A stretch of 33,251 nt of DNA, from IMG/VR virus record IMGVR_UViG_3300028591_000016; one strand, written 5' to 3'. The notes beneath the pieces are model-generated. The model was not told the DNA's origin, ran no database searches, and saw nothing but the letters and a program-made list of their open reading frames with translations. Position numbers and translations under genes: made by a program. Positions 2,967 to 21,159 of the stretch are shown piece after piece (within the stretch, counting starts at the first letter, position 1; each line of letters opens with the position of its first letter). This DNA comes from an uncultured virus (IMG/VR IMGVR_UViG_3300028591_000016) (Duplodnaviria > Heunggongvirae > Uroviricota > Caudoviricetes).

Positions 2967-3550
2967 AGAGCAACGGGCATCTGTATATCGGAATGGACAT
3001 AGACAAGGTTCTGGATATGGGTGTTCAGAAACTGGAGGATTCACTCATCGTCAACATGGTATCCGGTCCGATTGTAACATATTCCGCCGAGAACGCATAC
3101 GCTTTCGATATCGGCACACAGAATGAGCTGTCGATTCACATCACCCGCAGAAATCCGCAGAATGCATATGATCCTCTGGATGATACAGATCTGGAATACA
3201 CCCTTGGGGATGATGAAGATGTTGAAGATGCAGCGGACAGGACGCTGCTTGAGGGTAGCTGGGAACATTCTGGCACATGGTGCAACCGTCTCTGGAAGAA
3301 GGCTCTCACCTCACTCATAAACAGATGGCAGGCGCGTACCGATGGTAATAGGCTGACATTCATACCCGTTGTCACCATAGATGGAACCGCGGATACAGAT
3401 GGCGTGTTTCAACGTAAGATCGTGGATGCGAACGTCTATATGAAGACCTTATCTATCTCTTATTCCATCAATTCTCCTGAGGTGCTCGAAGTGTCGATAA
3501 ATCTCGTAAGGGGTTCGATGTGCGGTCAAAGGATTGGGAGGAGTAGCTGA
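2963..3550 (+). CDS. Putative tail (distal-tail/tube-like) protein
   Basis: ATG 2963 overlaps the upstream stop (ATGA), preceded by GGGGAGTG; shares DxGxxxxxSIxxTR and LxNRWQxRTxG motifs with ORF 6..2966; tail-gene context. Confidence 0.6.
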   Translation: MKSNGHLYIGMDIDKVLDMGVQKLEDSLIVNMVSGPIVTYSAENAYAFDIGTQNELSIHITRRNPQNAYDPLDDTDLEYTLGDDEDVEDAADRTLLEGSWEHSGTWCNRLWKKALTSLINRWQARTDGNRLTFIPVVTIDGTADTDGVFQRKIVDANVYMKTLSISYSINSPEVLEVSINLVRGSMCGQRIGRSS

Positions 3551-5631
3551 TGTCATCTCCCTCGAACCCTGCAACCGAGATCAATACCACTTTCGAAGCA
3601 CTAGGCAACGACTTCCCCTCCGGAGTGTGCTACATCGCTAACGGATCCCCTGTATATATCGCGGATTATGAGGTGGATGGGCTCATGTGGGAGATGGGGT
3701 CGACAATACCCACCATCTCTATCGGCGGTACCACTCCGGTATTAGGTCTTGTATATAACAATGATACCACGGCACGGGAATGGGCCCTGCATGGAAACAT
3801 CACCGGGAACGATGGCGACACCCTTTCATTCGATGTGACATATTCAGAAGACCCCGTCGGGACATATACATTCATCATCGTCGCGACACCTACTCCATTC
3901 CCGGACGCAGGCACGCCTGAAGACCCTATCGAGTCACTGACCATCACCGGGGCAGACCTGGCGAAAGGAGTCGTGGCAAGAACCTTCTATCTGACCCAGG
4001 GTGCAACACTGGATATAACCGGATGGTTCAACGATGGCTCGGAGTACTGGTTCGACCGCAATGATCCGGAACCGGGACACAATATAGTTAGGACCAACAT
4101 CCTCAACGACAATGACCAATGGGAAGGGTACAGGTTCACAAGCAGCGGGGTGACAAATGTCAACCCTGCCATGACCGAGACGTTCTATCTGACCTATCAT
4201 ATGAGGGATTTGACCGCAGGGACGACCACAACATATACCTGGTCCTTCTCGATAATGGCCGATCCCGATGCGGATGATGAGTCGTCCACTCCCACTGTGA
4301 ATAGGGGAGAGGGCGTGGACATCCAGAGAGAAGAGCAAATCTTCATGTCCGATATCGATAACCTCTCACAATACCTCATCTATCAATCCGAGTCGGATTA
4401 CAACTGTGTGGAATCCTATACGATATACGGCGGCAGCGAGCAGCCATTCGAATATGTGAAGCTTAAGATCAACAGGAAGCAATTGAGCGTACTTGCGCCG
4501 GAACTGATTGATTACATCATCCCCGGACGGAACATTATCACATTATTCGGTCCAGGCAGAGGGGAGTATGTCGTGACCAAGTGTTCAAAATCCAATGATA
4601 CATGGACAGTCGTGGCATATGCGACCATGGAACAGATCAGAGGATTGGTCATTACAGAGAGCAGATCATTCACTGAACTTGCGCCAGCTGATATGATAAC
4701 GAATCTCGTCCGCAGCACCCCGGATATGCTTGCCGTCTCCGGATCCAACCCGCTCAACCTCATTCATGAGATTGCCTTCCTGGTGAGAGCCAGCAACAAC
4801 TCGTGGGCAAACCCCGTAGGTTGTGCCTTCGAGGCGGGCACTAACGTGTGGTACGCCATCCAGGTGTGCGCTCTGAAGCTCAACGCCAAGGTTTGGCTTA
4901 CGGATGGTGTGCTATACGTCATAGACACATCGCTCACGGCCCAAGAGGCTCTGAACCCAAGTACCACATTCAGCTCCCTCGGCCAATCAAAATCCCCATT
5001 CAACGATATCGGTACGATATATCTCAATTCAGAAGGGGGATTCCCTATCAACCCAACGGAGTATCAGCAGGATATAATCTCTAATGTGGTGGATACTCCT
5101 GAACTAGGGGAGGATGGCAGTGAGGTGCTCCGTAATACCGTTACCATCACGTATAAAGGGAATATGACGACCATGTCCGATAACAATGGCAACCCCGCGA
5201 ATTCCCGTTCGATCTACAATATGAAAATGCACTCCCTGACCATACCTCAGATATCCGAGGGTGATGCCAAGGCGATCGCGAACCTGATGGCAAACAAGTA
5301 TTGCGACTCCGAGACATCCATCTCCTTCTCTATGGCAGAGATCGTCGAATCAACGGAAACAGAGGACGGCGTGACAACCACGCACTTCCGTTGGTACCCC
5401 TTCTTCACGCCATTGACACGTGCGGAGAAGATCGTGGATTACGTCAACGAGTCGACCACATCCATCACGAGCAACCTCGACCTTACCTCAAAATTCTATA
5501 ATAAGGGCATGCTGTCCCTGTACGAGTCGTCGTTCCCGCAGCATATCACCAAGTACACATTCGGTATCTCAATGCCGACCGATGTCTCGCAGAACAACTC
5601 CATCATACTGAGTGCAATCAACAACGGCTGA
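3550..5631 (+). CDS. Putative baseplate hub/tail-tip protein with N-terminal Ig-like/adhesin domains
   Basis: 693-aa ORF coupled to the upstream stop (TGATG); lies between tail and fibre genes; function inferred from synteny. Confidence 0.55.
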   Translation: MSSPSNPATEINTTFEALGNDFPSGVCYIANGSPVYIADYEVDGLMWEMGSTIPTISIGGTTPVLGLVYNNDTTAREWALHGNITGNDGDTLSFDVTYSEDPVGTYTFIIVATPTPFPDAGTPEDPIESLTITGADLAKGVVARTFYLTQGATLDITGWFNDGSEYWFDRNDPEPGHNIVRTNILNDNDQWEGYRFTSSGVTNVNPAMTETFYLTYHMRDLTAGTTTTYTWSFSIMADPDADDESSTPTVNRGEGVDIQREEQIFMSDIDNLSQYLIYQSESDYNCVESYTIYGGSEQPFEYVKLKINRKQLSVLAPELIDYIIPGRNIITLFGPGRGEYVVTKCSKSNDTWTVVAYATMEQIRGLVITESRSFTELAPADMITNLVRSTPDMLAVSGSNPLNLIHEIAFLVRASNNSWANPVGCAFEAGTNVWYAIQVCALKLNAKVWLTDGVLYVIDTSLTAQEALNPSTTFSSLGQSKSPFNDIGTIYLNSEGGFPINPTEYQQDIISNVVDTPELGEDGSEVLRNTVTITYKGNMTTMSDNNGNPANSRSIYNMKMHSLTIPQISEGDAKAIANLMANKYCDSETSISFSMAEIVESTETEDGVTTTHFRWYPFFTPLTRAEKIVDYVNESTTSITSNLDLTSKFYNKGMLSLYESSFPQHITKYTFGISMPTDVSQNNSIILSAINNG

Positions 5632-5635
5632 TGCC

Positions 5636-5643
5636 TTTATAAA
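5636..5643 (+). promoter_or_regulatory. Archaeal-type TATA box (TTTATAAA), probably driving a leaderless fibre/baseplate transcript
   Basis: CTTTATAAATCC ~29 bp upstream of ATG 5672; no SD in front of that ATG. Confidence 0.55.
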
Positions 5644-5671
5644 TCCATGATGCGATAGTGCAACGATCACG

Positions 5672-7156
5672 ATGAGTATGCACACCATCGAAGTGGTGTA
5701 CGATCCTACCACCAGGCGTATATCACTGACGCAGAACACTGATAAGTATGGTGGTGCAACATCGGATAACAATTCTGTCGCTATCAGAGTCTATGGCATA
5801 GAGCCAGAAGGGGACAACTTCAGGGCACGCGTGGACTTCAACGTGCAGGTGATGACCAACGCCCACACCTATCAGCACCCTTATGTGGAACTGGAGCCGG
5901 AATTTGCGGAGGAACAGACTCTCAGGGGCCTCTCTCCCCCTCCGCAGTATTCCGCCCCATGGTCTGGAGTGATTCCGGGCGCGGTGCTCGCTGCCACCGA
6001 GCAAACCCATAACAAGCTTCAGTTCCAGCTTCTCCTTGCAAGCGATGATTACGTCATCAATTCCCGTAATACGATCACTCTTGAGGTCACGCAAGCCATC
6101 TCCGCGCAGTCAGACGATCTGCCGATGCCTGAGCTCCCAGACTGGGAGATCCCTGACGGTCAGATCCCGGAGTATGTCGACCTCCACACGGTGGAGCTAG
6201 AATATGACCCAGATACCAGAAATCTCTCATTCGTAGATGAAAAGTCCAAGTATGGCGGGTCGACGATAGACACCAACTCGGTAGCCATCATAGTCACATC
6301 GGCGAGTGCTCAGCAGACTACCAGAGGCGGTAATTCGCTGTTCAAAGCAAGGATCGACTTCGCTGTGCCGGTGATCGTTGAGAACGGCATAGCGGTCAAG
6401 CCGTTCATTTCGCTGAGACCCATAGGCAATGCACTTATTGCCATGGTCCCGCAGCCCGTGCTGATGGCCGCCAGAGAGTTGAAGAAGCTCCCGCTTCAAC
6501 TGGTCATCAGAGAGGGTGACGCGATCATCAACTCCCGCAACACCATCACTCTCGATATCACCAGGGCCATCAACGCTCTGCAGACCATCAACAACGTGTA
6601 TGCCCCGGACCTGATGTTCCGCGATGATACGTGGGAATGGATGGAGGACTACACCTACTCGATAGGGTCTGTGGTCGTATATGATGGAGCGATCTACATC
6701 TCTCTAGCCGATGATAATCTGGGCAACAATCCTGCGGAAACGGAGGGGATGTATTGGACCATCCCCGCATCCGCAACCATTCAGCTCAATGGACAAGCTA
6801 CTGCTTTATCCAACGATGTATCGATATATGCCCCCTCCTCCGCGGGGACCAACGGGCAGATTCTCATATCAAACGGTTCAGGTGAACCTGCTTGGCAGGA
6901 TAGTATCGAGAATTACGCGAAAAAAGTTTCCGAGGAGAGAGTCATATATAGTGAGGGGGAATCTTCCATTACCTTATCTCATGACCTCGGGGATTACCCG
7001 TCTTCTGTACTAGTCTTTGAAAGGTCAGGTGCTCCCGGGGCATATAAATGGAATAGGGTAGACGTGGCATATGAGGCTACAGAGGACGAAATCATCTTAA
7101 AATTCGCAGTGCCAGTCCCGTATGGGGTGGCATTTAAAATCAAGGCGTTGATATAA
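5672..7156 (+). CDS. Baseplate-upper (BppU-like) protein: two tandem ~140-aa repeats, CBM5/12-like carbohydrate-binding module, C-terminal fibre-type beta domain
   Basis: Duplicated HTxExxYDPxTR..KYGGxTxDxNSVAI..ARxDF..INSRNTITLxxTxAI; WxxDYTYSIGSVVVYDGAIY..W motif at ~6632-6757. Confidence 0.6.
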   Translation: MSMHTIEVVYDPTTRRISLTQNTDKYGGATSDNNSVAIRVYGIEPEGDNFRARVDFNVQVMTNAHTYQHPYVELEPEFAEEQTLRGLSPPPQYSAPWSGVIPGAVLAATEQTHNKLQFQLLLASDDYVINSRNTITLEVTQAISAQSDDLPMPELPDWEIPDGQIPEYVDLHTVELEYDPDTRNLSFVDEKSKYGGSTIDTNSVAIIVTSASAQQTTRGGNSLFKARIDFAVPVIVENGIAVKPFISLRPIGNALIAMVPQPVLMAARELKKLPLQLVIREGDAIINSRNTITLDITRAINALQTINNVYAPDLMFRDDTWEWMEDYTYSIGSVVVYDGAIYISLADDNLGNNPAETEGMYWTIPASATIQLNGQATALSNDVSIYAPSSAGTNGQILISNGSGEPAWQDSIENYAKKVSEERVIYSEGESSITLSHDLGDYPSSVLVFERSGAPGAYKWNRVDVAYEATEDEIILKFAVPVPYGVAFKIKALI

Positions 7157-9051
7157 TGACAAACGACGAGAATCCTACGTTGAGGCAGTACTCCAACTTG
7201 GAGGTGCACGGAAAAATAACACAGACTGTAGCCCAGGGCACGAATAGTGACGATGTGGTGAAGGTGGGAACATATGCTCCCATCTCTATAACCGCGACCA
7301 CTCCTGCAGGCGGAACGATACCTGGACAGGTAATCATCTGCGGGGATGGATCGACAGCAGGAGCGGGCGCGGCTTATATAAAGACAGGTGCATCTAATTT
7401 CAAATTGCTTGGTGGGTTGCAAACAGAAGCAATCTCTAATTCGACGACCACGCCATATAAGTTTCCCCTGCTTATAAATTCTATTAAACAGGATGGGGAT
7501 ACTCTTGCAACAGGCCCCATCACTTCTGCAAACCTAAGTGATGATTTATATTATCAAATTTTCACACATCCAACTCAAGGATCTTTCCGTTCACTGCATA
7601 CACCCCAACTCGAAACACGTAGTATCTACCTTAGATCGAATGATAATCCTACAGGCATTTATTCTTGTATTCAACAAACAGGAGGTTCCAGTTTTTCAGG
7701 GCTATCTATAGTATCCACGTATATTGTAGGTAGTACTGTAAAATCCGCAGGCATCTCCATATCCACATTAACTGATGAGATGGTGGGGATAACAGTTAAT
7801 GGCCTAAACAACGCATATACATTTAGCACCACTGGGCTTAAATTATATGCTTCCGGTTCAATTCAGGCAGGAGATGCGTATGCTGTATCAGGCAATGCAG
7901 TCTACGATTATATTCAGGGCCTGCCTGAACCAATGATCTTTAAGGGTACAGTAGGTACCGATGGTACGATAGCATGGGCTGACCTGCCCCAACCTGCTGC
8001 AGGCACAGGTGTATCTTCTGGAAACGAGGGTTGGACCTATAAGGTCATCACAAAGTACACCAACACCGGTTCAAGTGATTACCGTCCGTCCGCAGAGATA
8101 GGCGACACGATCATATCCAATGGTACCGAATGGACAGTCATCCCATCCGGAGACGTCCCTGCAGGTACAGTCACATCCATAGCCACAGGTGCAGGTCTTA
8201 CAGGCGGGCCAATCACCTCCTCAGGTACGATTAAAGCCAACCTCAACAGTGAAACATCTATTGGAACGATCGGATCGAACAAGGTGTATGCCGTAGGTGT
8301 GGACTCCAACAGCAAACTTGCTGTGTCCGTACCGTGGACAGACACACTGGTCACACAGAATTATGTGTCTTCCGGTCAAGGGACCTTCCCACTCCTTCTC
8401 TCTGGGCAGTCCGATATCACGTCCACTAGCACCAGGGGTGCGAAAACGGCGAATCTGACCAATAAGATATATGCGGATATGGCAGCTGACGCATTATGCC
8501 TTAACGGATTCAATCTTTCCGGAGGAGGCAGCTTAGGTTTATTGAGCAAAACTGGAGGCATCACCCAGACAAATATGTCTTATCTATCTCTCGGCTCAGG
8601 GAATCTGATTCTGGAAGCACGTGGCAGTTCATCAACAAATATTGCCTCAATAAGCATGTCCACTGGAGAGGTAGACTTAGTAGTTAAGGGAAACGTACAC
8701 TACCATTTTGGTTCTTCAACCCTGACTGTGCCAGGTAAAGTAGATCTTACAACATCCGGCGATATAGTCTCCTCAAACAGGTATGCGGTTACAGGCGGTA
8801 CGGTATACACCGCTTTACAGTCCTACGCTAAAAAAGCATCATATACCGTTTCCGTGAATGCTGCAGGGGCATACACTGTACCACCTGGAGGTACTGGACT
8901 CGGATTTGCGCCCAAGGTCGTTCAAATCTATGACCCTGATGGCATACAGGTGTTGGTTCGTACAGAACTCACAGATGGTAGTGTAACATTCCGCACCGCC
9001 ACAGCACTCTCTGCGGCTCAGACATGGACAGTGAACATCATCGGCTGGTGA
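7156..9051 (+). CDS. Tail fibre / receptor-binding protein
   Basis: 631 aa, Thr/Ser/Gly-rich; GTVTSIATGAGLTGGPITSSGTI fibre motif; module shared with the next gene. Confidence 0.75.
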   Translation: MTNDENPTLRQYSNLEVHGKITQTVAQGTNSDDVVKVGTYAPISITATTPAGGTIPGQVIICGDGSTAGAGAAYIKTGASNFKLLGGLQTEAISNSTTTPYKFPLLINSIKQDGDTLATGPITSANLSDDLYYQIFTHPTQGSFRSLHTPQLETRSIYLRSNDNPTGIYSCIQQTGGSSFSGLSIVSTYIVGSTVKSAGISISTLTDEMVGITVNGLNNAYTFSTTGLKLYASGSIQAGDAYAVSGNAVYDYIQGLPEPMIFKGTVGTDGTIAWADLPQPAAGTGVSSGNEGWTYKVITKYTNTGSSDYRPSAEIGDTIISNGTEWTVIPSGDVPAGTVTSIATGAGLTGGPITSSGTIKANLNSETSIGTIGSNKVYAVGVDSNSKLAVSVPWTDTLVTQNYVSSGQGTFPLLLSGQSDITSTSTRGAKTANLTNKIYADMAADALCLNGFNLSGGGSLGLLSKTGGITQTNMSYLSLGSGNLILEARGSSSTNIASISMSTGEVDLVVKGNVHYHFGSSTLTVPGKVDLTTSGDIVSSNRYAVTGGTVYTALQSYAKKASYTVSVNAAGAYTVPPGGTGLGFAPKVVQIYDPDGIQVLVRTELTDGSVTFRTATALSAAQTWTVNIIGW

Positions 9052-9056
9052 GATAA

Positions 9057-12000
9057 GTGGTCGACACTGTGACGAACCCCGTTCCGATCCCATCGGACGT
9101 GGAGGTCAATGGCAAGGTCAAGGCGACCAAATTCATCGGCCCGTTGGAGGGCAATGCAGATACTGCAACGACAGCTACGACCGCAAGTAAACTTGGGTCA
9201 AGCAATGTCGGAGCCACGCTGAAGATAATGTATCTCAACGGCGGATCACCGACCAACGGTACACAGCTTTATAATGACAAAGTAAAGGTTGCAGGTACTG
9301 CTTCTACTATCGTCACTACGGGCACGACCGCTTTAGATCTGGCAACCGCAAGCCATACCCATGGGAACATAACTAACGATGGCAAGCTCGGGACCGCAAG
9401 CAGAGTCGTAATTACTGATGGCAGTAAGAACATCACGACCGACTCCAATATCGACACCACCGAACTGAGTTACCTAAATGGTGTTTCGTCCAACATCCAG
9501 ACCCAGATTGACGGTAAAATGAAAAGGGGTACATATGAGCGTATAGAAGGTACAACTTCTGCTCATAAGGATCTCAATAATTACTATACGCCTGGATTTT
9601 ACAATGTAAAAGGATTGTATACGGATAATTGTCCTTTAACAACAGATACAGATTACTATCTAATGGTGATGCCATGGAATAAGGATAAATGGACTACTCA
9701 ATTCCTTATTTCCGGAAATGGTACGCCCAATTCCGGAAAAATGTGGTATAGGACTACAACAAATGGTACCGCAACCACATGGGGCGGATGGGTGAGGGCT
9801 GCATCCGCGTCAGAACTTCCCTCCGCATCCTCCACCACACCCTCTGATCTGGGCACCGCCGCCGTGGGAACATCCACAGCATATGCGAGGGCGGACCACG
9901 TCCATAAGAAACCTACTGCATCAGATATTGGTGCTGCGCCGACCTCCCATGCAGTTGACGCCAGTACATATGGATGGGGCTCTAAATCTGTTGCAGGGCA
10001 TCTAAAGGTAGGATCCAACATCACTGTATCAGATGGTACGATCAGCCTTACAAAAACGGATGTTACTAGTGCCCTTGGTTATACGCCCCCTACGTCTAAC
10101 ACGGACACTCTGATGACCCAGAGTGTCAGTACAGCTAATGCAACATACCCTATACTTGCGTGTCCCACTGCAGATGCGACAGCTAACCAGGGTGCGAAGA
10201 CAGGTATCTTTGCCAGTTCTGTTGAACTGAATCCGTCAACCGGAAACATCGTATTCACTAAAGCATCAGGCGGGATCTCATATAAAGGTACAAAATCCAC
10301 ATACAACATGATCCGCTTTGTAGATAATACAGGCGACACCTTTGGTAACGGCATCATAATAGGAGGGGGAGGGCTCGTCTCAATAGGCGGAGGTGAGTCT
10401 GCAACCACTATTGCGGGATCTGAAAGCGGGGGGCTGGAAGAACTAAGGCTCGGGAGTGACGGAGTCATCAGAGTATATACGAATGTTCAAAGTAACTCCA
10501 CCACAGTAAGTACGTTCAACACAGACGGTACATTCACTCCTAAGACCTCTGGGTCTGTTGCATCTAACAACGGGAACGCAGTCACAGGAGGGGTCGTATA
10601 TACCGCGATACAGAACCTCAAGAGCGAAATCGGCACGCCCATGCACTACAAGGGCGCATGGACATCCAATAACTCCTGGCCATCCAATCCCGCCACAGGG
10701 GACACATATAGGGCAACCGTAAATGGGTCGATTGATAATGTACCAACATGGAAAGCGGGAGATACACTCGTCTACGGAGAATCCGCATGGGATATTATCC
10801 CATCGGGTGATGAGCCCACGGGTACAGTCATACCTTCTGGAACTATTACAAACGGTCACATTGCGGTATTCGATGGGACTTCAGGAAACGTCATCAAGGA
10901 TGGAGGTGCAACATCCCAGTTCCAACCTGCTGGTACATATCTCACATTATACAACAACGCATCAAATCTTTCCACCATTGCTGGTTGGGGAACACTCACA
11001 TCTACTAACGGATATACACATCTTGCAGGTGTGGCTCAAGCAGCAGGAGGATCCAATGGTGAATTAAGGATTGCAACCAAGAGCGGACAAGTATCTGTAC
11101 AAGTCGATGGGTATTATTACCAAAATGAGGGAAAATATCAAGTCATTGATACTACCACCACACAATCACTCACCAATAAAACATACAATGGATACACACT
11201 TGCCGCAGCATGCGCGAAAGGTGTAGATACATCCATAGCTAACGCATCTTCAAGCGCCAGTCTCCCTACAAGTGCGGCGGTCGCGGCGTTCGTAGAAGGA
11301 AAAGGGTATACCACTCTTTCGATAGGCACAACCTCTACCACCGCGGCTGCAGGTGACCACACCCACGCCATATCCTTGGAAAGCGGCGGCGCGACTACTT
11401 TTGTATTGTCTCATGGAGGGACATACACCCTGACTGCGGGAGGATCCAGTGTCATTTTCAAAATGCCGAATGATGATAATACCCACTACACCGCAAATCT
11501 GATCACGGGTGCATCAGCCACAGCTCAGTCCAATGCGGCAAATACTACAACCAACAGCATATTCCTCAACCTGGTTGAGAACAGTACCGTACGCAATTCA
11601 CATAATATAGTGGGTTCGGGAGGAACTACCGTCGCGTGTGATGCAAACGGCAAGATCACGATCACATCTCCTTCACTGGGTACAGGGGCCTCTAATGCCG
11701 CCAAAGGAAATCACACCCACACTGCATCCCTCACGGCCGCAGGATCCAGTGGGACCACTTTGGCACATAACACATGGTATACACTTACTGCGGGCGGGTC
11801 CAGTGTCATATTCAAGACCCCAGCGGATAATAATACTGACATATATGTAAAACAGATTCCTCTCACAACCGATAACACTTACACATATCCTCTTCTCGCA
11901 AGTGCTACAGCTAGTGCTACGACTGAAACTACGACCACAAGTGTGTTCTGTCCAAACATTCAATTAAGACCCTTGTCTACCGCAATTACATTATCGTTAT

Positions 12001-13475
12001 CTGGGACTATTGGTTGGGTTAGTCCTTATGGTTTGTCCCATTCATATAATATCGACTCCACCTCACATAATATAGAGTTTGTTAGAAACAATACAATCCC
12101 CGGGTATATTATATCCGCCAATTCAAACGGAGGGTCATACTCTAAAATTTCCAGTGCTACGCTTTATGAGCCAGCAGATGCGGATTGCGGAGTAGGATAT
12201 CTTGCTGCAGGATATGTCAAGGCAGTTCATAGAGGACGTAGGTCAACGTTTACGATGCCCGCCGCGACCACCAGGTGCAAACTCATCACTATTGCCAATG
12301 GGGATTACGTCAATAATAATTACACCGCACATATGAAGTTCAGAATCCGCACCGCAGTGAGCAACCCGTACGAGAACTTCACCGTGGAGATTCACTGGTC
12401 AGGCGCAGTCTCCAATATGCTGATCTACTCTGGTAATGCAACGGTCACGGGATCCGCACCGATCAGGTATGTATCCAGCTATGTAACGAAGACCCTGTCC
12501 TCCTCTGGTCATGGGTGTTTTGTAATGGTCGAGAACGGATCCACCACTGCAAGAAACATGATCATTGAGGTCCTTGAAGCGGATATTCCATATACTGTCG
12601 AGACAGGAACTCTTGCAGCACACGGCCAGACTGATGGCAATTTCAACATCGACCGTTTAGAGGCTGCTAACAATGCAGATAGGACCATCGTTTCCTCGGG
12701 TTCGATGGTCACCAGCATCACGGGTAATTGCAGCGGATCGGCAGGAAGTGCGAACTGGTCTTACTACCTCTATAACGATTATTGGGGCACCACCGGAGAA
12801 GCGATCACCAGCGGGCAGATCATCGCAAAAGGTTCAGACGGAAAGGCATATACCCTAAAGAGCAGAACGGACAAGGTGTTCGCATTGCCGTTGACTGTCG
12901 GGAGGGCGAACAGCGCATTCAATGCGAATGTGAACTGTGCAGTCCAGCATCAGGTCCGTAACTTAGCCTCAAGCGCCCTTACATCAATGGTCGTAGATGC
13001 TTCTTCTGCTATAGGTGCACCGCTATATATCCGTGGATCTCTTGATTCCAATGGCTATTTCATCTGTGACGGCCACTACTCATCTGTAATGACCAATGGA
13101 TACACCTGGGTGCAGATCGGGTCCTTTGCACGTACCGTAAATAACTGGAATCTCGACGCATCACACATTCAGCACGCAATCACACTTAACTCCAGCGGAA
13201 AGGTGACCCATGTTGATGGAAAGGCCGTGTTGGATACGACCTATACGGTCAATAATGGTACGCTTACGATCAAGGGAGGTTCAACGACCGCCACGACATT
13301 CACTGCGAATTCATCCACTTCTCCGACTTTGACAATCTCGGGAAGCAGAGGAACGACCGTGACTGCTGCATCGGGTACGATCACAGTTTCATCCCCACAG
13401 ATATATTCGTCCACATCTGCGCCCACATCCTCCGATGGGTCTAACGGCGACATCTGGATCCAGTACACGGCGTGA
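9057..13475 (+). CDS. Long tail fibre protein with a pyocin-knob-like domain
   Basis: 1472 aa, T/S/G-rich; HTH/HVH metal-binding motifs (SHTH, ARADHVH, GDHTH, GNHTH); DLNNYYTPGFY..MWYRT..WGGWVR knob; C-terminal APTSSDGSNGDIWIQY. Confidence 0.8.
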   Translation: MVDTVTNPVPIPSDVEVNGKVKATKFIGPLEGNADTATTATTASKLGSSNVGATLKIMYLNGGSPTNGTQLYNDKVKVAGTASTIVTTGTTALDLATASHTHGNITNDGKLGTASRVVITDGSKNITTDSNIDTTELSYLNGVSSNIQTQIDGKMKRGTYERIEGTTSAHKDLNNYYTPGFYNVKGLYTDNCPLTTDTDYYLMVMPWNKDKWTTQFLISGNGTPNSGKMWYRTTTNGTATTWGGWVRAASASELPSASSTTPSDLGTAAVGTSTAYARADHVHKKPTASDIGAAPTSHAVDASTYGWGSKSVAGHLKVGSNITVSDGTISLTKTDVTSALGYTPPTSNTDTLMTQSVSTANATYPILACPTADATANQGAKTGIFASSVELNPSTGNIVFTKASGGISYKGTKSTYNMIRFVDNTGDTFGNGIIIGGGGLVSIGGGESATTIAGSESGGLEELRLGSDGVIRVYTNVQSNSTTVSTFNTDGTFTPKTSGSVASNNGNAVTGGVVYTAIQNLKSEIGTPMHYKGAWTSNNSWPSNPATGDTYRATVNGSIDNVPTWKAGDTLVYGESAWDIIPSGDEPTGTVIPSGTITNGHIAVFDGTSGNVIKDGGATSQFQPAGTYLTLYNNASNLSTIAGWGTLTSTNGYTHLAGVAQAAGGSNGELRIATKSGQVSVQVDGYYYQNEGKYQVIDTTTTQSLTNKTYNGYTLAAACAKGVDTSIANASSSASLPTSAAVAAFVEGKGYTTLSIGTTSTTAAAGDHTHAISLESGGATTFVLSHGGTYTLTAGGSSVIFKMPNDDNTHYTANLITGASATAQSNAANTTTNSIFLNLVENSTVRNSHNIVGSGGTTVACDANGKITITSPSLGTGASNAAKGNHTHTASLTAAGSSGTTLAHNTWYTLTAGGSSVIFKTPADNNTDIYVKQIPLTTDNTYTYPLLASATASATTETTTTSVFCPNIQLRPLSTAITLSLSGTIGWVSPYGLSHSYNIDSTSHNIEFVRNNTIPGYIISANSNGGSYSKISSATLYEPADADCGVGYLAAGYVKAVHRGRRSTFTMPAATTRCKLITIANGDYVNNNYTAHMKFRIRTAVSNPYENFTVEIHWSGAVSNMLIYSGNATVTGSAPIRYVSSYVTKTLSSSGHGCFVMVENGSTTARNMIIEVLEADIPYTVETGTLAAHGQTDGNFNIDRLEAANNADRTIVSSGSMVTSITGNCSGSAGSANWSYYLYNDYWGTTGEAITSGQIIAKGSDGKAYTLKSRTDKVFALPLTVGRANSAFNANVNCAVQHQVRNLASSALTSMVVDASSAIGAPLYIRGSLDSNGYFICDGHYSSVMTNGYTWVQIGSFARTVNNWNLDASHIQHAITLNSSGKVTHVDGKAVLDTTYTVNNGTLTIKGGSTTATTFTANSSTSPTLTISGSRGTTVTAASGTITVSSPQIYSSTSAPTSSDGSNGDIWIQYTA

Positions 13476-15145: not shown

Positions 15146-15235
15146 ATCACCTGGGACGCATACAGCAAACCAATAAGAAATGGCAGCTTTAGGAGCTTCG
15201 GTTCGATTCCGATTGACCGCGTCCTGGGAGGTGAT
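15146..15235 (+). ncRNA. ACAGCAAAC hairpin RNA 2 carrying a T-arm and D-loop-like module (YrlA/Y-RNA-like)
   Basis: GGGACGC(15153-59)/GCGTCCT(15219-25) stem; ACAGCAAAC 15162-70; AAATGGC; AGCT/AGCT hairpin; TCGG-TTCGATT-CCGA at 15198-15212. Confidence 0.65.
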
Positions 15236-15239
15236 TGCT

Positions 15240-16844
15240 ATGATAGGAAACGACAACGCATTTGTTAACCAGGCAGCTGACGCTGCAGCTAGGACCCACA
15301 CGGAGAATGGCGCGAACGCTTACAGAACGACCCAGTCCGCACTTGTGGACCTCTTCGCCTCCATCGGGGCACTCAGAGAGTCCAACAGGATGCAGTTCGA
15401 CAGATTCACGGACATGCTCGACCTGTCCGCCGCGGAGGATGCCACTATCCTCGCGAAGATGCTCTTCTATGCAAGGGACATCAGGGGAGGACTCGGAGAG
15501 AGGCAGGTCTTCCGCGACGCTCTCGAGCACTGCGCGAAGAACCACCCTGAGGTCATCAGACCCAACATTCGCAGGATCCCCGAATACGGCAGATGGGACG
15601 ACCTGCTCGCTCTCATCGGCACGCCCCTCGAGGACGAGATGTGGGCCTTCATCGACGAGACCATCAAGAACGATATGTGCCAGATCAGGGACGGCAAGCC
15701 CGTGTCCCTTCTCGGCAAGTGGCTCCCCTCCGCGGACACCTCCTCCAGGGAGACCCGCAAGATGGGATGTTACGCAGCCAAGAAGCTCGGGTACACCGTG
15801 CACGACTACAAGCGCGTGGTCAAGCACCTCAGGAAGCACCTCCCCATCACGGAGACCCAGATCTCCTCGAACAAGTGGGACGAGGTCAAGTACCCCGGAG
15901 TGCCCTCCAACGCCATGATGAAGTACAATAAGGCGTTCGCAAGGCACGACGCCGAGAGGTTCGCACAGTACGTCAACGACGTCAAGGCCGGCAAGACCAA
16001 GATCAACGCGTCCACCCTCTACCCCTACGAGATAGTGGAGAAGGTGCGCTGCAACAACGATGCCGTCATCTATAAGGAGATGTGGAAGCACCTGCCCAAC
16101 TACGTGGACGGAGAGAACGACTACCTCATCATCGCCGACACCTCCGGCTCCATGATGGGGCGCCCCATGGACACCGCCATAGGTCTGGCACTGTACTTCG
16201 CAGAGAGGAACCAGGGAGCCTTCAAGGACATGTTCCTGACCTTCAGCTCCACGCCCGAGTTCGTGCAGGTCCCCAGGGCCCTGCCCCTCGACAGAAGGAT
16301 CTACACGGTCATGAACGCACCCTGGGGGGGCTCCACCAACCTGCAGGCCGCGTTCCAGCTGATCCTCGACACCGCCAAGAAGGGCAACGTGCCCGCGAAG
16401 GACATGCCCAAGTCGCTGATCATCATCACCGACATGGAGTTCGACGCTTGCGTGGAGGCCACCCCCGTCGAGCCCGACAAGCCCGTCACGGTCACCAAGA
16501 TCCTCGTCGACCCCATGTCCGGACTGCGCTACAGCGTAGAGGTGCCCGCACCTTACATCCCTCCCCGCAGGATGAGGGCGGACTGCACGTTCTTCGAGTC
16601 CATGCAGAAGATGTACGCCGAGGCCGGCTACGAGATGCCTAACGTGGTCTTCTGGAACGTCAACAGCAGGAACTCCACGGTGCACACCAAGGCCGACACG
16701 CCCAACGTGCAGCTGGTCTCCGGGTCGTCTCCTTCGGTCTTCCGCAGCCTTACGGAGTGCCTGACCATGACCCCCTACGAGGCCATGCTCAAGATCCTGT
16801 CCGTGGACAGATACAAGAACATCGTCGCGGAGACAATAGGATGA
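15240..16844 (+). CDS. DUF2828 family protein (TROVE/Ro60-like helical domain + vWA MIDAS domain)
   Basis: Motifs RDIRGGLGER, YGRWDDL, KWLPS, VPSNAM, INASTLYPYEIV, DTSGSM, WGGSTN, ITDMEFD, VFWNV, VSGSSP; GGAGGTGA SD at 15227-34 supports ATG 15240. Confidence 0.85.
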   Translation: MIGNDNAFVNQAADAAARTHTENGANAYRTTQSALVDLFASIGALRESNRMQFDRFTDMLDLSAAEDATILAKMLFYARDIRGGLGERQVFRDALEHCAKNHPEVIRPNIRRIPEYGRWDDLLALIGTPLEDEMWAFIDETIKNDMCQIRDGKPVSLLGKWLPSADTSSRETRKMGCYAAKKLGYTVHDYKRVVKHLRKHLPITETQISSNKWDEVKYPGVPSNAMMKYNKAFARHDAERFAQYVNDVKAGKTKINASTLYPYEIVEKVRCNNDAVIYKEMWKHLPNYVDGENDYLIIADTSGSMMGRPMDTAIGLALYFAERNQGAFKDMFLTFSSTPEFVQVPRALPLDRRIYTVMNAPWGGSTNLQAAFQLILDTAKKGNVPAKDMPKSLIIITDMEFDACVEATPVEPDKPVTVTKILVDPMSGLRYSVEVPAPYIPPRRMRADCTFFESMQKMYAEAGYEMPNVVFWNVNSRNSTVHTKADTPNVQLVSGSSPSVFRSLTECLTMTPYEAMLKILSVDRYKNIVAETIG

Positions 16845-16881: not shown

Positions 16882-17136
16882 ATGGATACAGAACTCAAAG
16901 CAAAGCTCAAAGCGAAACTGAATGTGACCGTACAGGCCGTGCAGGGAATGATGCAGCCCGACATCGACGATGAGGAGAAGCAGGGCTGGATCGCCATCTA
17001 CAACGGTGCTATGCGCAAGATCATGAACGACTACCTCGCCGACGAAGTCCCTCCTCAGGCTCCCTCGGAGGAGCCTTCCGCAGAGGCCGGAGAAACCGTC
17101 GTGGAAGACGTCGGTGGAATCACAAATGCCGAGTGA
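16882..17136 (+). CDS. Hypothetical protein, acidic C-terminus
   Basis: 84 aa; GAGGT SD; codon style matches neighbours. Confidence 0.7.
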   Translation: MDTELKAKLKAKLNVTVQAVQGMMQPDIDDEEKQGWIAIYNGAMRKIMNDYLADEVPPQAPSEEPSAEAGETVVEDVGGITNAE

Positions 17137-17440
17137 GCTCATGGATTTCGGCGAAGCACTCAAGGCCCTCAAAGAGGGTAAGAAGATCGCCCGCGAGGGC
17201 TGGAATGGGCAAGGAATGTTCCTCTACCTCACGCCCGGACATAAGCTGTCATCTCAGGAGTGGACCGCAAAGGACTCCGCTCATGAGATGACCGACCACG
17301 AGCGTCTAACAGGTGAGGTCGAGATCCTCCCCCACATCGACATGTACACGGTCAACCGTGACGGTCGCAGGGGCAGGCTCTGCGGATGGCTCGCCAGTCA
17401 GACGGACATGCTGTCCGAAGACTGGATCATTGTAGAGTAA
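17126..17440 (+). CDS. tad2: DUF2829 / Thoeris anti-defence 2 (Tad2)-like nucleotide-signal sponge
   Basis: MDFGEALKALKEGKKIAREGWNGQGMFLYL ... PHIDM ... GWLASQTDMLSEDWIIV is the DUF2829 signature; start 17126 or 17141. Confidence 0.8.
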   Translation: MPSELMDFGEALKALKEGKKIAREGWNGQGMFLYLTPGHKLSSQEWTAKDSAHEMTDHERLTGEVEILPHIDMYTVNRDGRRGRLCGWLASQTDMLSEDWIIVE

Positions 17441-17453
17441 ACTAATTAACATC

Positions 17454-17490
17454 ATAGATACTGTCTATACAAAATATAGACAATATCTAT
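17454..17490. promoter_or_regulatory. 16-bp-arm inverted repeat (1 mismatch, 5-bp spacer) abutting a TTTATA box upstream of the NAD operon
   Basis: ATAGATACTGTCTATA-caaaa-TATAGACAATATCTAT; TTTATA at 17490-95. Confidence 0.55.
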
Positions 17491-17543: not shown

Positions 17544-18080
17544 ATGAAGAACGTATTGATCGTGATCGACATGCAGAACGACTTCATCACCGGTTCCTTA
17601 GGATCGGAGGATGCTCAAGCGATCGTTCCTGCTATCGTGAAGAGGATCAGGAGCGGGTACTATGACGATATCTTCGCCACCAGGGACACGCACAAGGACA
17701 ACTACATGGATACCCTTGAGGGACAGAAACTGCCGGTGCCGCACTGCATCAAGGATACCGAAGGCTGGCAGATCCAGAAGGACATCAAAAAAGCTCTGGA
17801 TGATATGAACGGAGACTCATACGTTCAGATCATCGACAAGTACACCTTCGGCTCGCTGTTACTGCCGACCAAGATCAGGGACGGCGTCGAGGAGATTGAC
17901 ATCGTCGGGGTCTGCACGGACATCTGTGTCATCAGCAACGCCCTCAGCCTGAGGATGTTCTACCCGAATATGCCCATCCGCGTCATAGCGAATGAGTGTG
18001 CGGGAGTGACCCCCGAGCTGCACGAGGCCGCTCTGAAGGTCATGCAGTCATGCCAGATCGATATCGAGACCACGGAGTGA
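17544..18080 (+). CDS. pncA: Nicotinamidase (isochorismatase/cysteine hydrolase family)
   Basis: IDMQNDF, TRDTH, PHC..GW, KYTFGS, VGVCTDICV motifs; GAGGAG SD before ATG 17544; NAD-gene context. Confidence 0.85.
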   Translation: MKNVLIVIDMQNDFITGSLGSEDAQAIVPAIVKRIRSGYYDDIFATRDTHKDNYMDTLEGQKLPVPHCIKDTEGWQIQKDIKKALDDMNGDSYVQIIDKYTFGSLLLPTKIRDGVEEIDIVGVCTDICVISNALSLRMFYPNMPIRVIANECAGVTPELHEAALKVMQSCQIDIETTE

Positions 18081-18084
18081 GCGG

Positions 18085-18942
18085 ATGCTGACCTTCAAGG
18101 ACATACCCACGGATAAACCGATCACGTATGAGATCAGCATAGGAGAGTTCAACGACCAGACCCCCAAGATCAAGGTGGCCATAGATAAGCTTCTTGAAGG
18201 GAAGCACCTGGTCATCGAGGTCGTGTGGACCTTTGAGGCCAGCAGGTGGGAGCGCGATCTGTTCAACCTCCAGTGCATCATGGACATGCTGCGCAGAGAA
18301 CAGGGGATCAAGGTCTGGCTCTATATCAGATACCTGCCTAACGCAAGGATGGACAGGACTGATGATGAGACGGCGTTCACTCTGTGGTCCTTTGCGAGGA
18401 TAATCAACAAGATGTACTTCGTAGGGGTAAAGATCGACGACCCCCACTCTGATACAGCACTGAATCTGATAGACAGGAGCTATCCCGGGTCCATATCGGA
18501 CCGCTATGCTGCGGTATGTAAGAAGGTCAAGAACCCGCTGATCGTCTTCCCGGACGAAGGAGCCCTATACAGGTATGCCAAGGACATCCCCGAGGATGTG
18601 CCGGTCACACACTGCAAGAAGACCAGGGACTGGAACACGCAGCACGTGACGGACATGAAGCTGATGAACCCCGAGATGGTCAAGGGCAAGGACGTGGTCC
18701 TCATAGACGATATCATCGCCCACGGCTACACCATGTATCTGGCCATCAAGGAGATCGAGGAATACAGCCCCAAGTCTATCACGATCTACGCCACGCACAT
18801 AGAGGAGTCCTTCATAGACGGGATACTGTGCCAGAAGCTGAACGAAGGAGAGATCGAGGCCCAGGTGTACACCACGGGCTCGATCATAAGGAAGTGGGAC
18901 AAGGTCCCGGAATACTTCCACATACTGGAGGGAACTGAATGA
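18085..18942 (+). CDS. Ribose-phosphate pyrophosphokinase-like protein (PRS fold; candidate ADPR-PP synthetase, Adps-like)
   Basis: YLPNARMDR, DPHS, VFPDEGA..RY, KTRDW, VLIDDIIAHGYT motifs; coupled to the NAMPT-fold gene. Confidence 0.8.
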   Translation: MLTFKDIPTDKPITYEISIGEFNDQTPKIKVAIDKLLEGKHLVIEVVWTFEASRWERDLFNLQCIMDMLRREQGIKVWLYIRYLPNARMDRTDDETAFTLWSFARIINKMYFVGVKIDDPHSDTALNLIDRSYPGSISDRYAAVCKKVKNPLIVFPDEGALYRYAKDIPEDVPVTHCKKTRDWNTQHVTDMKLMNPEMVKGKDVVLIDDIIAHGYTMYLAIKEIEEYSPKSITIYATHIEESFIDGILCQKLNEGEIEAQVYTTGSIIRKWDKVPEYFHILEGTE

Positions 18943-20444
18943 AATACAACCCAATGCTAGCATGCGACTACTACAAGACCGTACACACGCAGATGCTCCC
19001 CAAGGGCATCACCAAGTCCGTGAGCTACCTCTTCCCGAGGAGCTCCCGCATCCCCGGATGGGACGAGGCGGTGTTCTTCGGCCTCAGAGGCTTCATCCAG
19101 GAGTATCTCATCGACATGTTCAATGAGAACTTCTTCAAGCAGCCCAAGAGACAGGTGATGGGAGAGATAGAGTATGTGCTCAGGCACACTCTCGGAGAGA
19201 AGGCGAAGTCCAACATCAAGCAGATCGGCGAGCTCTACGATCTGGGCTATCTGCCCATCGCGATCTACGCCCTGCCCGAGGGATCGCATGTCCCTATGGG
19301 AGTGCCGATGCTGGCCATCACCAACACCCTGCCGGAGTTCGCATGGCTCCCGCAGTATCTGGAGTCGCTGCTGTCCTGCGAGATGTGGCACGGCATCGTC
19401 GTGGCCACCGTCGCGGACAAGTACAGGCAGATCGTCGACAGATGGTACGAGAAGACCGTGGTCGGCGGCAAGCCCGAGACCGCACTCTCCTGCTTCGATA
19501 TGAGGGGAGAGGAGTCCTTCGGGGACGCTGTCAAGGCGGGAGCCGCATGGGCCACGTCCTTCGTGCCCTGTGCCACCGTCTCCACGGCCACCTACCTCTA
19601 CGACTGCTACGGCGCAGACGAAGCCTGTATCACCGGCTCGCCGTCGACGGAGCACGCGGTCATGTGCTCCAACTATGCGGTGGACGGGGACGAGGTCACC
19701 TTCCTCAAGAGGATGCTCACGGAGGTCTATCCCGAGCAGAGCTTCTCGGCGGTGCTGGACTCCTACGACTACTGGCGCATGATCAAAGAGGTGCTGCCCA
19801 CGCTCAAGGAGGAGATCCTTGCACACAAGGGCTGCTTCCTGCCGAGAGGGGACTCAGGCGATCCTGTCGAGGTCGTTACGCAGACGGTGTTCGCACTCTG
19901 GGACATCTTCGGCGGCACGGTCAACGACAAGGGCTACAAAGTCCTCGACCCGCACGTCAAGGCAATCTACGGGGACGGCATCACCCTCCAGAGATGCGAG
20001 GAGATCTACTCCATCCTGGAGAAGAACGGCTTCGCGGCAAGCAACGTGGCGCTGGGAGTAGGCTCGTACAGCATGCAGGCGGTCTGCATCGACGATAAGC
20101 ACTATCCCTTCACCAGGGACACCTTCAACATCGCCATCAAGGCCACCTACATCGAGGTCAACGGCAAGGCGTACATGATCCAGAAGTCGCCCAAGGTCAA
20201 CGGGGCGCACGGAGAGACCACCGAGTACTTCAAGAAGTCCAAGAAGGGAGCGATACTCGTGACCGGAGAGGACGGGGAGTACATCGCGGAGGACGGATTC
20301 CTCTTCGATGAGACCCGCAAGAGCAAGCTCAACAGGCTGAGGCTGGTCTTCTACGAGGGACAGATGGGCCGCGACGACTCGCTTGACGAGATCAGGGACA
20401 GGCTCAACAGGTACAGGGAGAAGCAATATGAGGTTCAACGCTGA
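18939..20444 (+). CDS. NAMPT-family (NadV/Namat-like) phosphoribosyltransferase, probably nicotinate-preferring
   Basis: DYYK..H, FFGL, LGYLPI, FDMRG, TEHAVM, DSYD, RGDSGDP, IYGDGIT, GVGS, TRDT..AIKAT motifs. Confidence 0.9.
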   Translation: MKYNPMLACDYYKTVHTQMLPKGITKSVSYLFPRSSRIPGWDEAVFFGLRGFIQEYLIDMFNENFFKQPKRQVMGEIEYVLRHTLGEKAKSNIKQIGELYDLGYLPIAIYALPEGSHVPMGVPMLAITNTLPEFAWLPQYLESLLSCEMWHGIVVATVADKYRQIVDRWYEKTVVGGKPETALSCFDMRGEESFGDAVKAGAAWATSFVPCATVSTATYLYDCYGADEACITGSPSTEHAVMCSNYAVDGDEVTFLKRMLTEVYPEQSFSAVLDSYDYWRMIKEVLPTLKEEILAHKGCFLPRGDSGDPVEVVTQTVFALWDIFGGTVNDKGYKVLDPHVKAIYGDGITLQRCEEIYSILEKNGFAASNVALGVGSYSMQAVCIDDKHYPFTRDTFNIAIKATYIEVNGKAYMIQKSPKVNGAHGETTEYFKKSKKGAILVTGEDGEYIAEDGFLFDETRKSKLNRLRLVFYEGQMGRDDSLDEIRDRLNRYREKQYEVQR

Positions 20445-21159
20445 ACAGGCGAGGGACGACATAATCCTCTTCATCCGGGACTTCTTCAAGTCCTCCGGAG
20501 GAAAAACCGCGGTGATCGGACTCAGCGGTGGCAAGGATTCCACCATAGTCGCGGCACTCTGTGCCGAGGCCATCGGCAAGGAGAACACCGTAGGCGTGAT
20601 CATCCCTAACGGAGAGATGGCCGACATCGGCGAGGCGAAGGAGGCTGCCGAGCTGTACTGCGGCGACAGCTATGTGTTCAACCTGTCATCGATGATGATG
20701 TGCATGAACACGTCCGTGCTGCCGAAGTCCACGGAGCAAGCGAGGATCAACTTCCCCGCAAGGATGAGGATGTGCATCCTCTACTACGTGGCGCAGAGCC
20801 TCAGGCACGGCCGTGTGGCCAACACCTGCAACCTGTCCGAGGACTACGTCGGATGGGCGACCAGGTACGGCGACACCGCAGGGGACTTCGCTCCCCTGCA
20901 CAATTACACCGTGCAGGAGGTCAAGGCCATAGGCCGCGCTCTGGGCGTTCCATCCGAGCTGGTGGAGAAGGCACCGTCCGACGGACTCTGCGGCAAGACC
21001 GACGAGGAGGGGCTGGGCTTCAGCTATGAGGTGCTGGACAGATACATCCGCACGGGGGAGTGCGACGATACCTTGATCAAGGAGAGGATCGATACGCTCC
21101 ACGAGAGGAACCTGTTCAAGCTCATGCCGATCCCGGCCGCTCCCAACAGGTACGCATAA
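20428..21159 (+). CDS. nadE: NH3-dependent NAD+ synthetase
   Basis: GLSGGKDS P-loop, ARMRM, NTCNLSEDYVGWATRYGD, KAPSDGL, TDEEGLG; no glutaminase domain; GGGAG SD before ATG 20428. Confidence 0.9.
   Translation: MRFNAEQARDDIILFIRDFFKSSGGKTAVIGLSGGKDSTIVAALCAEAIGKENTVGVIIPNGEMADIGEAKEAAELYCGDSYVFNLSSMMMCMNTSVLPKSTEQARINFPARMRMCILYYVAQSLRHGRVANTCNLSEDYVGWATRYGDTAGDFAPLHNYTVQEVKAIGRALGVPSELVEKAPSDGLCGKTDEEGLGFSYEVLDRYIRTGECDDTLIKERIDTLHERNLFKLMPIPAAPNRYA

Follow-up and report, generated by a model that had tools for sequence, protein, structure and literature searches.

A predicted nicotinate-type form of NARP1, a pathway by which phages reconstitute NAD+, encoded by a cassette that joins an Ala/Ser-type Namat-like transferase with PncA-like, Adps-like, and NadE proteins

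Depletion of NAD+ (nicotinamide adenine dinucleotide) serves as a common bacterial defence, and the reconstitution of NAD+ by phages (pathways NARP1, NARP2, and NARP3) is an active field. The closest described relative, in both sequence and fold, of the protein considered here is Namat, the transferase of NARP1 (SPbetaL1 Namat, PDB entries 9w5x and 9w5w; bioRxiv 10.1101/2024.02.11.579819, PMC12774641). In the crystal structure of SPbetaL1 Namat, Asp215 hydrogen-bonds nicotinamide, and the D215A substitution lowers the formation of NAD+ from nicotinamide 8.1-fold (PMC12774641). The specificity of NAMPT is described as set by an Asp, Asp219 (D219A is inactive and D219S switches the substrate; PMC7096376, PMC4919578), while human NAPRT carries Ser214 at this position and binds the carboxylate via Arg318, the counterpart of NAMPT Arg311 (PMC4442680). 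Here we describe a Namat-like transferase gene in IMG/VR record IMGVR_UViG_3300028591_000016, a stretch of 33,251 nucleotides (nt) from an uncultured virus of the Caudoviricetes (the whole stretch is hereafter called the window). The encoded protein has Ala in place of this Asp, and its gene lies between genes for a PncA-like nicotinamidase and an Adps-like protein on one side and for the NAD synthetase NadE on the other; judging from sequence comparisons, the cassette is probably a deamidated (nicotinate-type) version of NARP1. The transferase gene and the positions discussed below are as follows.

18939..20444, + strand: Ala-type Namat-like transferase (NAMPT fold), 501 amino acids (aa), a proposed nicotinate ADP-ribose transferase
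19572..19574, + strand: Ala212 codon (gcc), aligned with Namat Asp215 (human Asp219)
19644..19646, + strand: Ser236 codon, aligned with Namat Ala242; second switched residue of the nicotinamide pocket
19653..19655, + strand: His239 codon, aligned with His245, which is the catalytic phospho-His in Namat
20082..20108, + strand: nine-residue insertion (window residues 382–390) in the part that corresponds to the adenine-clamping helix/loop of Namat; modelled as a beta-hairpin

The transferase matched Pfam families PF18127 (NAMPT N-terminal, 31.5 bits) and PF04095 (NAPRTase catalytic, 68.4 bits), NCBIfam NF006629 (409.2 bits, cut-off 405), and PHROG family phrog_448 (497 bits); PF17767 (NAPRTase_N) was absent from its Pfam matches. 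HMMER aligned it to SPbetaL1 Namat (9w5x/9w5w) with 355 bits (E = 4e-105), as compared to 272 bits for H. ducreyi NadV, 162 bits for Xanthomonas Nampt, and about 132 bits for human NAMPT; by sequence, the protein is much nearer to the Namat of NARP1 than to Nampt. An AlphaFold2 model built from a 104-row alignment (mean predicted local distance difference test score, pLDDT, 95.9) had Namat 9w5x as its best Foldseek match, with a template modelling (TM) score of 0.88–0.92 and a root-mean-square deviation of 2.0–2.2 Å, followed by H. ducreyi NadV and human NAMPT (TM about 0.84). A first model, from a 12-row alignment, was discarded (mean pLDDT 69.9, with residues 183–249, the region of the site, below 50). 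The comparison of a predicted model with NAMPT and Namat, proposed in an earlier sequence-only reading of this DNA, bore out the match in fold, whereas the equivalence of individual residues comes from the sequence alignments.

In the HMMER alignment, no gap separates the stacking Phe (window F186, Namat F189) from the site, and A212 stands opposite Asp215, which places A212 at the Asp215 position of Namat; Xanthomonas Nampt (7yqo) also has Asp in this column. We take Namat Asp215 to be the equivalent of human Asp219, in part from the text of PMC12774641 rather than from an alignment of our own. The window protein retains Tyr12, Phe186, Arg189, His239 (in TEH), Arg303, and Asp305; in the alignment, His239, Tyr12, and Phe186 are matched by Namat His245, Tyr15, and Phe189, and none of the three varies among the 244 proteins described below, save for a single gap at the Tyr. 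The sequence-only reading, which had placed Ala212 (codon gcc, 19572–19574, within residues 204–216 as it gave them) at the NAMPT Asp site with the phospho-His motif and the stacking Tyr and Phe kept, is confirmed on both points by these alignments.

The replacement is a property of a whole clade. Among the 120 nearest database proteins (57–99% identity), the site is Ala in 119 and Ser in one, and Asp in none, indicating that Ala212 is neither a chance substitution nor a sequencing slip. A wider set of 244 proteins comprised 80 from genome contigs and 80 from viral contigs found with the alignment of this clade, 80 from viral contigs retrieved with Asp/Glu-type Namats, three from annotated phages, and the window protein; here the site is Ala in 159 proteins, Ser in one, Asp in 66, and Glu in 18. 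A second pocket position switches along with it, as the column of Namat Ala242 (window Ser236) is Ser in all 160 Ala/Ser-type proteins and Ala in all 84 Asp/Glu-type proteins. The clade has further changes of its own in or near the pocket: His187 is replaced by Gly/Ser, His207 by Trp, Gly213 by Asn/Pro, and Pro307 by Gly, and in 105 of the 160 Ala/Ser-type proteins Ser190 is replaced by Asp. We also assembled a set at 50% identity, consisting of the window protein and the best 150 representatives from a search of 1.84 billion proteins, in which the residue pairs at the two positions (Asp site first) were D+A in 96 rows, A+S in 30, S+S in 19, and V+S, A+G, A+T, E+A, D+G, and a gap in one row each; Ser thus occupies the Asp site in about a third of the representatives of the clade. 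In a FastTree phylogeny calculated without the two trait columns, a single branch with support 100 sets the 52 rows lacking Asp or Glu apart from the others (unrooted tree, one method), so that the switch at the Asp site arose once in this tree. Both the pocket pair and the gene linkage described below are conserved down to 46% identity to the window protein. Two further features of the family concern length: in an Asp-type homolog of 1114 aa (P0153), some 330 residues that look intein-like are inserted right in front of the catalytic (T/S)EH motif, and many family members of 540–910 aa match the query in at least two stretches that break near window residue 314.

The described families share different parts of this pattern. 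Members of the NAMPT/NadV group (human, Xanthomonas 7yqo, and H. ducreyi 9ke8) have the same fold, Pfam domains, stacking Tyr/Phe, and phospho-His as the window protein, but Nampt has the Asp that the window protein lacks, a Gly-rich loop where the window protein has GS plus an aromatic residue, and a shorter first clamp loop, and it is far more distant in sequence than Namat. NAPRT/PncB resembles the window protein in its base (nicotinate being the base predicted for the latter), in the conserved carboxylate-binding Arg, and in a small uncharged residue at the Asp219 position (Ser214 in human NAPRT, PMC4442680; Ala in 32 and Ser in 19 of the 52 rows of the clade); it differs in the N-terminal domain, which in the window protein is the NAMPT-type PF18127 and not NAPRTase_N PF17767, and in the predicted donor. 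With Namat, the window protein shares the catalytic His, Arg306, Asp308, Gly-Asp361, and Arg399′, a Prs-like gene directly 5′ of its own, and a phage anti-defence setting, the window copy being located beside a Tad2-like gene. Residues of the Namat adenine clamp are also shared, including Arg40′ of the clamp loop (window Arg37; Arg in 158 of 160 proteins of the clade), the aromatic residue at position 3 of the clamp motif (residue 392, aromatic in 160 of 160), and Thr398′ and Asp400′, both retained in the clade. The differences from Namat are the change of Asp215 to Ala and of Ala242 to Ser, the clamp insertion and the lack of conservation at Tyr396, the company of PncA and NadE, and, as predictions, nicotinate as the base and nicotinate adenine dinucleotide (NaAD) as the product.

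The transferase gene is the fourth of five genes arranged head to tail on the + strand; the other features of this region are listed here.

17114..17440, + strand: Tad2-like protein (Thoeris anti-defence 2 family); PF11195, E = 2.7e-25, 89.1 bits (cut-off 25); phrog_1048 and phrog_872
17454..17490, no strand assigned: near-perfect inverted repeat of 37 nt between the Tad2-like gene and pncA, overlapping a promoter-like site
17544..18080, + strand: PncA-like nicotinamidase of 178 aa; start placed at the ATG at 17544, with GAGGAG 8 nt 5′ of it
18085..18942, + strand: Adps-like (Prs-like) protein, a candidate ADP-ribose pyrophosphokinase of 285 aa, with a stop codon that overlaps the transferase start
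20428..21159, + strand: NadE, an NAD synthetase of the NH3 type, 243 aa from the ATG at 20428; 17-nt overlap with the end of the transferase gene

We read pncA, the adps-like gene, the Ala-type namat-like gene, and nadE as a translationally coupled four-gene cassette beside the Tad2-like gene. Genes for PncA, a Prs-like protein, and NadE were all found within 6 kb in 142 of the 160 Ala/Ser-type loci, whereas neither PncA nor NadE was found within 6 kb in any of the 84 Asp/Glu-type loci, 78 of which have Adps; among the Ala/Ser-type loci, 151 of 160 encode an Adps-like protein. The contrast persists after thinning to 90% identity (67/78 vs. 0/58) and to 70% identity (8/11 vs. 0/43). The order PncA–Adps–transferase–NadE occurs in 113 of 161 loci (the window included), and two other orders also occur. 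Nine of the 18 incomplete Ala/Ser-type loci are cut by a contig end. A separate scan of viral contigs with an alignment of Ser-type proteins returned 78 proteins, of which 31 were new and 47 duplicates; all four genes are present in ten further Ser-type loci, and in one Ser-type locus (L302) NadE is the only partner nearby. Loss of the Asp therefore does co-occur with pncA and nadE neighbours, as the sequence-only reading had anticipated, and the linkage supports its proposal that a change of base explains why the enzyme travels with PncA and NadE.

Both partner proteins fit their assigned families. The PncA-like protein matches Pfam Isochorismatase (78.7 bits), its best PDB matches include nicotinamidases (1ilw/1im5, 3pl1, 3o90, and 2wt9), and, in an alignment to P. 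horikoshii PncA, it retains D9, K99, C128, D48-x-H50, and H67. D9, K99, and C128 correspond to the catalytic triad of nicotinamidases, and D48, H50, and H67 to the metal site. The score of this protein on NF008623 (31.7) is far below the cut-off of 174, so it is not an equivalog of E. coli PncA. NadE matches Pfam NAD_synthase (165.7 bits) and TIGR00552 (155.9 bits, cut-off 63.65), with an SGGKDS loop at residue 33 and no glutaminase domain.

The observed residue switch, which is conserved clade-wide and strictly linked to the partner genes, leads us to propose the following series of reactions. After a host NADase has split NAD+ into ADP-ribose and nicotinamide, PncA would deamidate nicotinamide to nicotinate, as its family and active-site residues suggest, and the Prs-like enzyme would pyrophosphorylate ADP-ribose to ADP-ribose pyrophosphate (ADPR-PP) in the manner of Adps, as suggested by its family membership. 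The Ala212/Ser236 transferase would then join nicotinate and ADPR-PP directly to NaAD, a new step that would bypass nicotinate mononucleotide (NaMN) and any adenylyltransferase, and NadE would amidate NaAD to NAD+, the function of its family. Without the Asp, the pocket would have neither the acceptor for a hydrogen bond from the amide nor a negative charge expected to repel a carboxylate, and the new Ser together with the conserved Arg189 and Arg303 could hold that carboxylate. All of the comparative evidence gathered here favours the view of the sequence-only reading that this NAMPT-fold enzyme has switched from nicotinamide to nicotinate. With slightly less assurance, we lean towards regarding the Ala/Ser-type relatives as a new nicotinate ADP-ribose transferase, which with PncA, Adps, and NadE would make up a fourth, self-contained way of reconstituting NAD+ without any adenylyltransferase. 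This route would be widespread: gut and rumen Clostridia would have it as a chromosomal operon under the control of NrtR, and their phages as a counter-defence cassette, located here beside Tad2.

The donor is the second element of this proposal. The closer relationship to Namat and the Adps-like gene overlapping the start of the transferase gene, a neighbour that the sequence-only reading had missed, suggest that the donor is likely ADPR-PP and the product likely NaAD rather than NaMN. The Prs-like protein of the window and the tested SPbetaL1 Adps both belong to phrog_619 (153 and 248 bits), and BLASTP aligned them with 29% identity (E = 6e-23). On TIGR01251, the profile of phosphoribosyl pyrophosphate (PRPP) synthetase (PRPS) with a cut-off of 113, the window protein scored 71 bits and SPbetaL1 Adps 106 bits; the match of the window protein ends at profile position 281 of 309. 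An IQ-TREE quick tree split seven canonical PRPS from 61 Adps-like rows with an SH-aLRT support of 100, the window row being located on a long branch. Window residues F22, R88, H121, D157, K179, D208, and D209 are at least 90% conserved in both locus types and match residues F18, R87, H121, D161, K185, D212, and D213 of ICP1 Adps named in PMC13586617; most of the ICP1 residues are shared with PRPS (PMC13586617), so that they indicate an intact enzyme rather than its specificity. A PDB search with the Prs-like protein returned canonical PRPS only (best 4twb, 54 bits) and no Adps entry.

The gene neighbourhoods of the relatives also touch on ADP-ribose. Macro-domain genes are found in 36 of 79 viral loci; of the 38 loci having one, 35 carry it within the cassette, with the transferase gene on one side and the NadE gene on the other. 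NARP1 is known to occur with an added Macro-type ADPR-1″-phosphate phosphatase (aRES preprint), and these 35 related loci resemble NARP1-AP (Adps, the Macro phosphatase Adpp, and Namat; bioRxiv 10.64898/2026.01.28.702374) in their intra-operon Macro gene; they differ from NARP1-AP in adding PncA and NadE, and the window differs in having no Macro gene. The gene for NrtR, a repressor that senses ADP-ribose (PMC2330246), adjoins or follows the cassette in 61 of the 80 bacterial loci and in none of the 79 viral loci. A palindrome, TTATCA-N3-TGATAA, sometimes in tandem, lies 5′ of pncA in 13 of 68 bacterial loci (L018, L037, L038, and L051 among them), in none of 71 viral loci, and not in the window; it is a candidate NrtR operator. 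The bacterial loci recall the gamma-proteobacterial prs-nadV-nrtR operons described in 2008 (PMC2330246), in which a Prs paralogue and a NadV-like gene are under NrtR; those operons are listed as prs-nadV only, and the arrangement pncA-prs-nadV-nadE is absent from Table 1 of that paper.

Carrier genomes do not appear to lack the standard enzymes. In all five bacterial carrier genomes searched, canonical PncB, two canonical PRPS, and NadD are encoded elsewhere, which means that the cassette does not make up for a missing part of the ordinary nicotinate pathway; a long NadE is encoded elsewhere in four of the five. In three of these genomes (G004:C9, G005:C3, and G006:C4), one of the two canonical PRPS paralogues is found no more than about 4 kb away from canonical PncB. 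No NadD/NMNAT-like family was found among the 30 commonest neighbour clusters (22 of clusters 4–29 were scanned with Pfam), and no PF01467 match was found in the nearest virus record, a 5.8-kb fragment (G001) that is uninformative on the adenylyltransferases of the whole phage. Taken together, the grouping with Adps, the retained clamp residues, the Macro and NrtR genes, and the lack of an adenylyltransferase family among the 30 commonest neighbour clusters favour a route through ADP-ribose.

Several observations weigh against a nicotinate-type NARP1. The selectivity clamp of Namat has the motif GS-X-phi-X-phi-X-phi-TRD, in which positions 3 and 7 are aromatic (PMC12774641). The window protein reads GS, then Y-S-M-Q, then the nine-residue insertion, then F-TRD, so that the Namat motif is broken; the insertion is common to the clade (HMMER places a gap in Namat opposite window residues 382–390), and the model predicts strands at 381–384 and 387–390. 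Tyr396 of Namat, the adenine-stacking residue at position 7, has no clear counterpart, its column in a MAFFT alignment being Leu in 132 of 160 proteins and His in the window, and with the motif broken adenine recognition is not assured. SPbetaL1 Namat itself can also use PRPP in vitro (PMC12774641). The window Adps-like protein is very divergent, with only 29% identity to SPbetaL1 Adps, a branch of 2.44 changes per column, and a best identity of 34% to any other Adps-like row, beside a transferase that is 59% identical to bacterial ones. The Asp, a strong determinant, is not an absolute filter, as human NAMPT, which has it, binds nicotinic acid according to the titles of PDB entries 6ta0 and 6ta2 (human NAMPT with nicotinic acid and PRPP, and with NaMN). 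Nine of the incomplete loci have ample flanks, five lacking NadE, one lacking PncA and NadE, and three lacking the Prs-like gene. The linkage counts come from loci sampled by peptide patterns, the best 80 per scan, with many IMG/VR contigs from one dataset, and, with a switch that arose once, the linkage to PncA and NadE is a deep property of the clade rather than a series of independent events.

Some of these points would be accommodated by a NAMPT-fold nicotinate phosphoribosyltransferase that makes NaMN from nicotinate and PRPP, with the Prs-like protein supplying PRPP, the host NadD converting NaMN to NaAD, and the NadE of the cassette completing a boosted Preiss-Handler pathway. The interrupted adenine-clamp motif and the non-conserved Tyr396 fit such an enzyme, as do the NadD found in all five bacterial genomes searched and the designation of NF006629 as nicotinate phosphoribosyltransferase, which is a name only. 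We nevertheless consider it rather unlikely: the Prs-like partner groups with tested Adps and not with canonical PRPS, the five carrier genomes searched already have canonical PncB and two canonical PRPS, the intra-cassette Macro genes and the adjoining NrtR both point to ADP-ribose, and no adenylyltransferase travels with the cassette among its 30 commonest neighbour clusters, whereas NARP2 brings its own.

An ordinary nicotinamide-using Namat, with Ser236 or other residues standing in for the Asp and with PncA and NadE present for nicotinamide removal or for general NAD supply, might draw on the residual activity of SPbetaL1 D215A (about one eighth; PMC12774641) and on the same PDB titles, 6ta0 and 6ta2, by which the Asp is not an absolute determinant. 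It seems improbable, since PncA would destroy the substrate of the enzyme, NadE would have no substrate in an amidated route, the linkage is 142 of 160 loci against none of 84, and the paired change of the two pocket residues is still conserved at identities as low as 46%. Even less credible, in our view, is the use of a different pyridine or acceptor, or a Francisella-like order of steps, with NadE amidating NaMN to nicotinamide mononucleotide (NMN) for a host enzyme to adenylate. The additional clade-specific changes in the pocket (the His187, His207, Gly213, and Ser190 columns) leave some room for a different base, but the PncA-like protein has the full set of nicotinamidase residues and nothing in the neighbourhood points to one, and the Francisella-like order would need extra host steps.

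The main texts of the NARP1 preprint, the Namat structure paper, and a 2026 review make no mention of PncA, NadE, or nicotinate in connection with Namat (their supplementary tables may list such operons), and neither a PncA/NadE-linked nor a nicotinate-type Namat appears in the main text of the aRES and RyDEP preprints or of the 2022 survey of NAD-ADPr in viruses; full-text literature searches, whose scope ends short of supplements, likewise returned no description of one. If correct, a deamidated NARP1 would add a new reaction, the direct formation of NaAD from ADPR-PP, would illustrate how two pocket residues can retune the choice of base in the NAMPT fold, and would explain many genes of gut Clostridia that are loosely annotated as nicotinate/nicotinamide phosphoribosyltransferase. 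It would also raise the question of why a costlier nicotinate route is used. Speculatively, the NadE step is driven by ATP and is practically irreversible, hosts may quickly turn nicotinamide into nicotinate, or NaAD may be a poor substrate for NADases.

The Tad2-like gene, whose family comprises Thoeris anti-defence sponges, and the NAD cassette together look like a small anti-Thoeris or anti-NADase island. The 37-nt inverted repeat between them (17454–17490) is followed by a T-rich stretch and could be a terminator of the Tad2-like gene or an operator; it does not match the TTATCA-N3-TGATAA palindrome. The element as a whole looks phage-like, given the Tad2-like protein, a phrog_850 protein, and a nearest record that is itself a virus record, sharing 33% of sampled words with the window. 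Nineteen of the 21 other open reading frames (ORFs) of the window had no PHROG match; five large consecutive ORFs (window 6–13475; 986, 693, 494, 631, and 1472 aa) and an ORF of 198 aa are without a match. The phrog_850 (“RNA-binding protein”) match belongs to a 554-aa protein at 15180–16844 with DUF2828, DUF7788, and VWA domains, whose family was also found near the cassette in nine viral loci and one bacterial locus.

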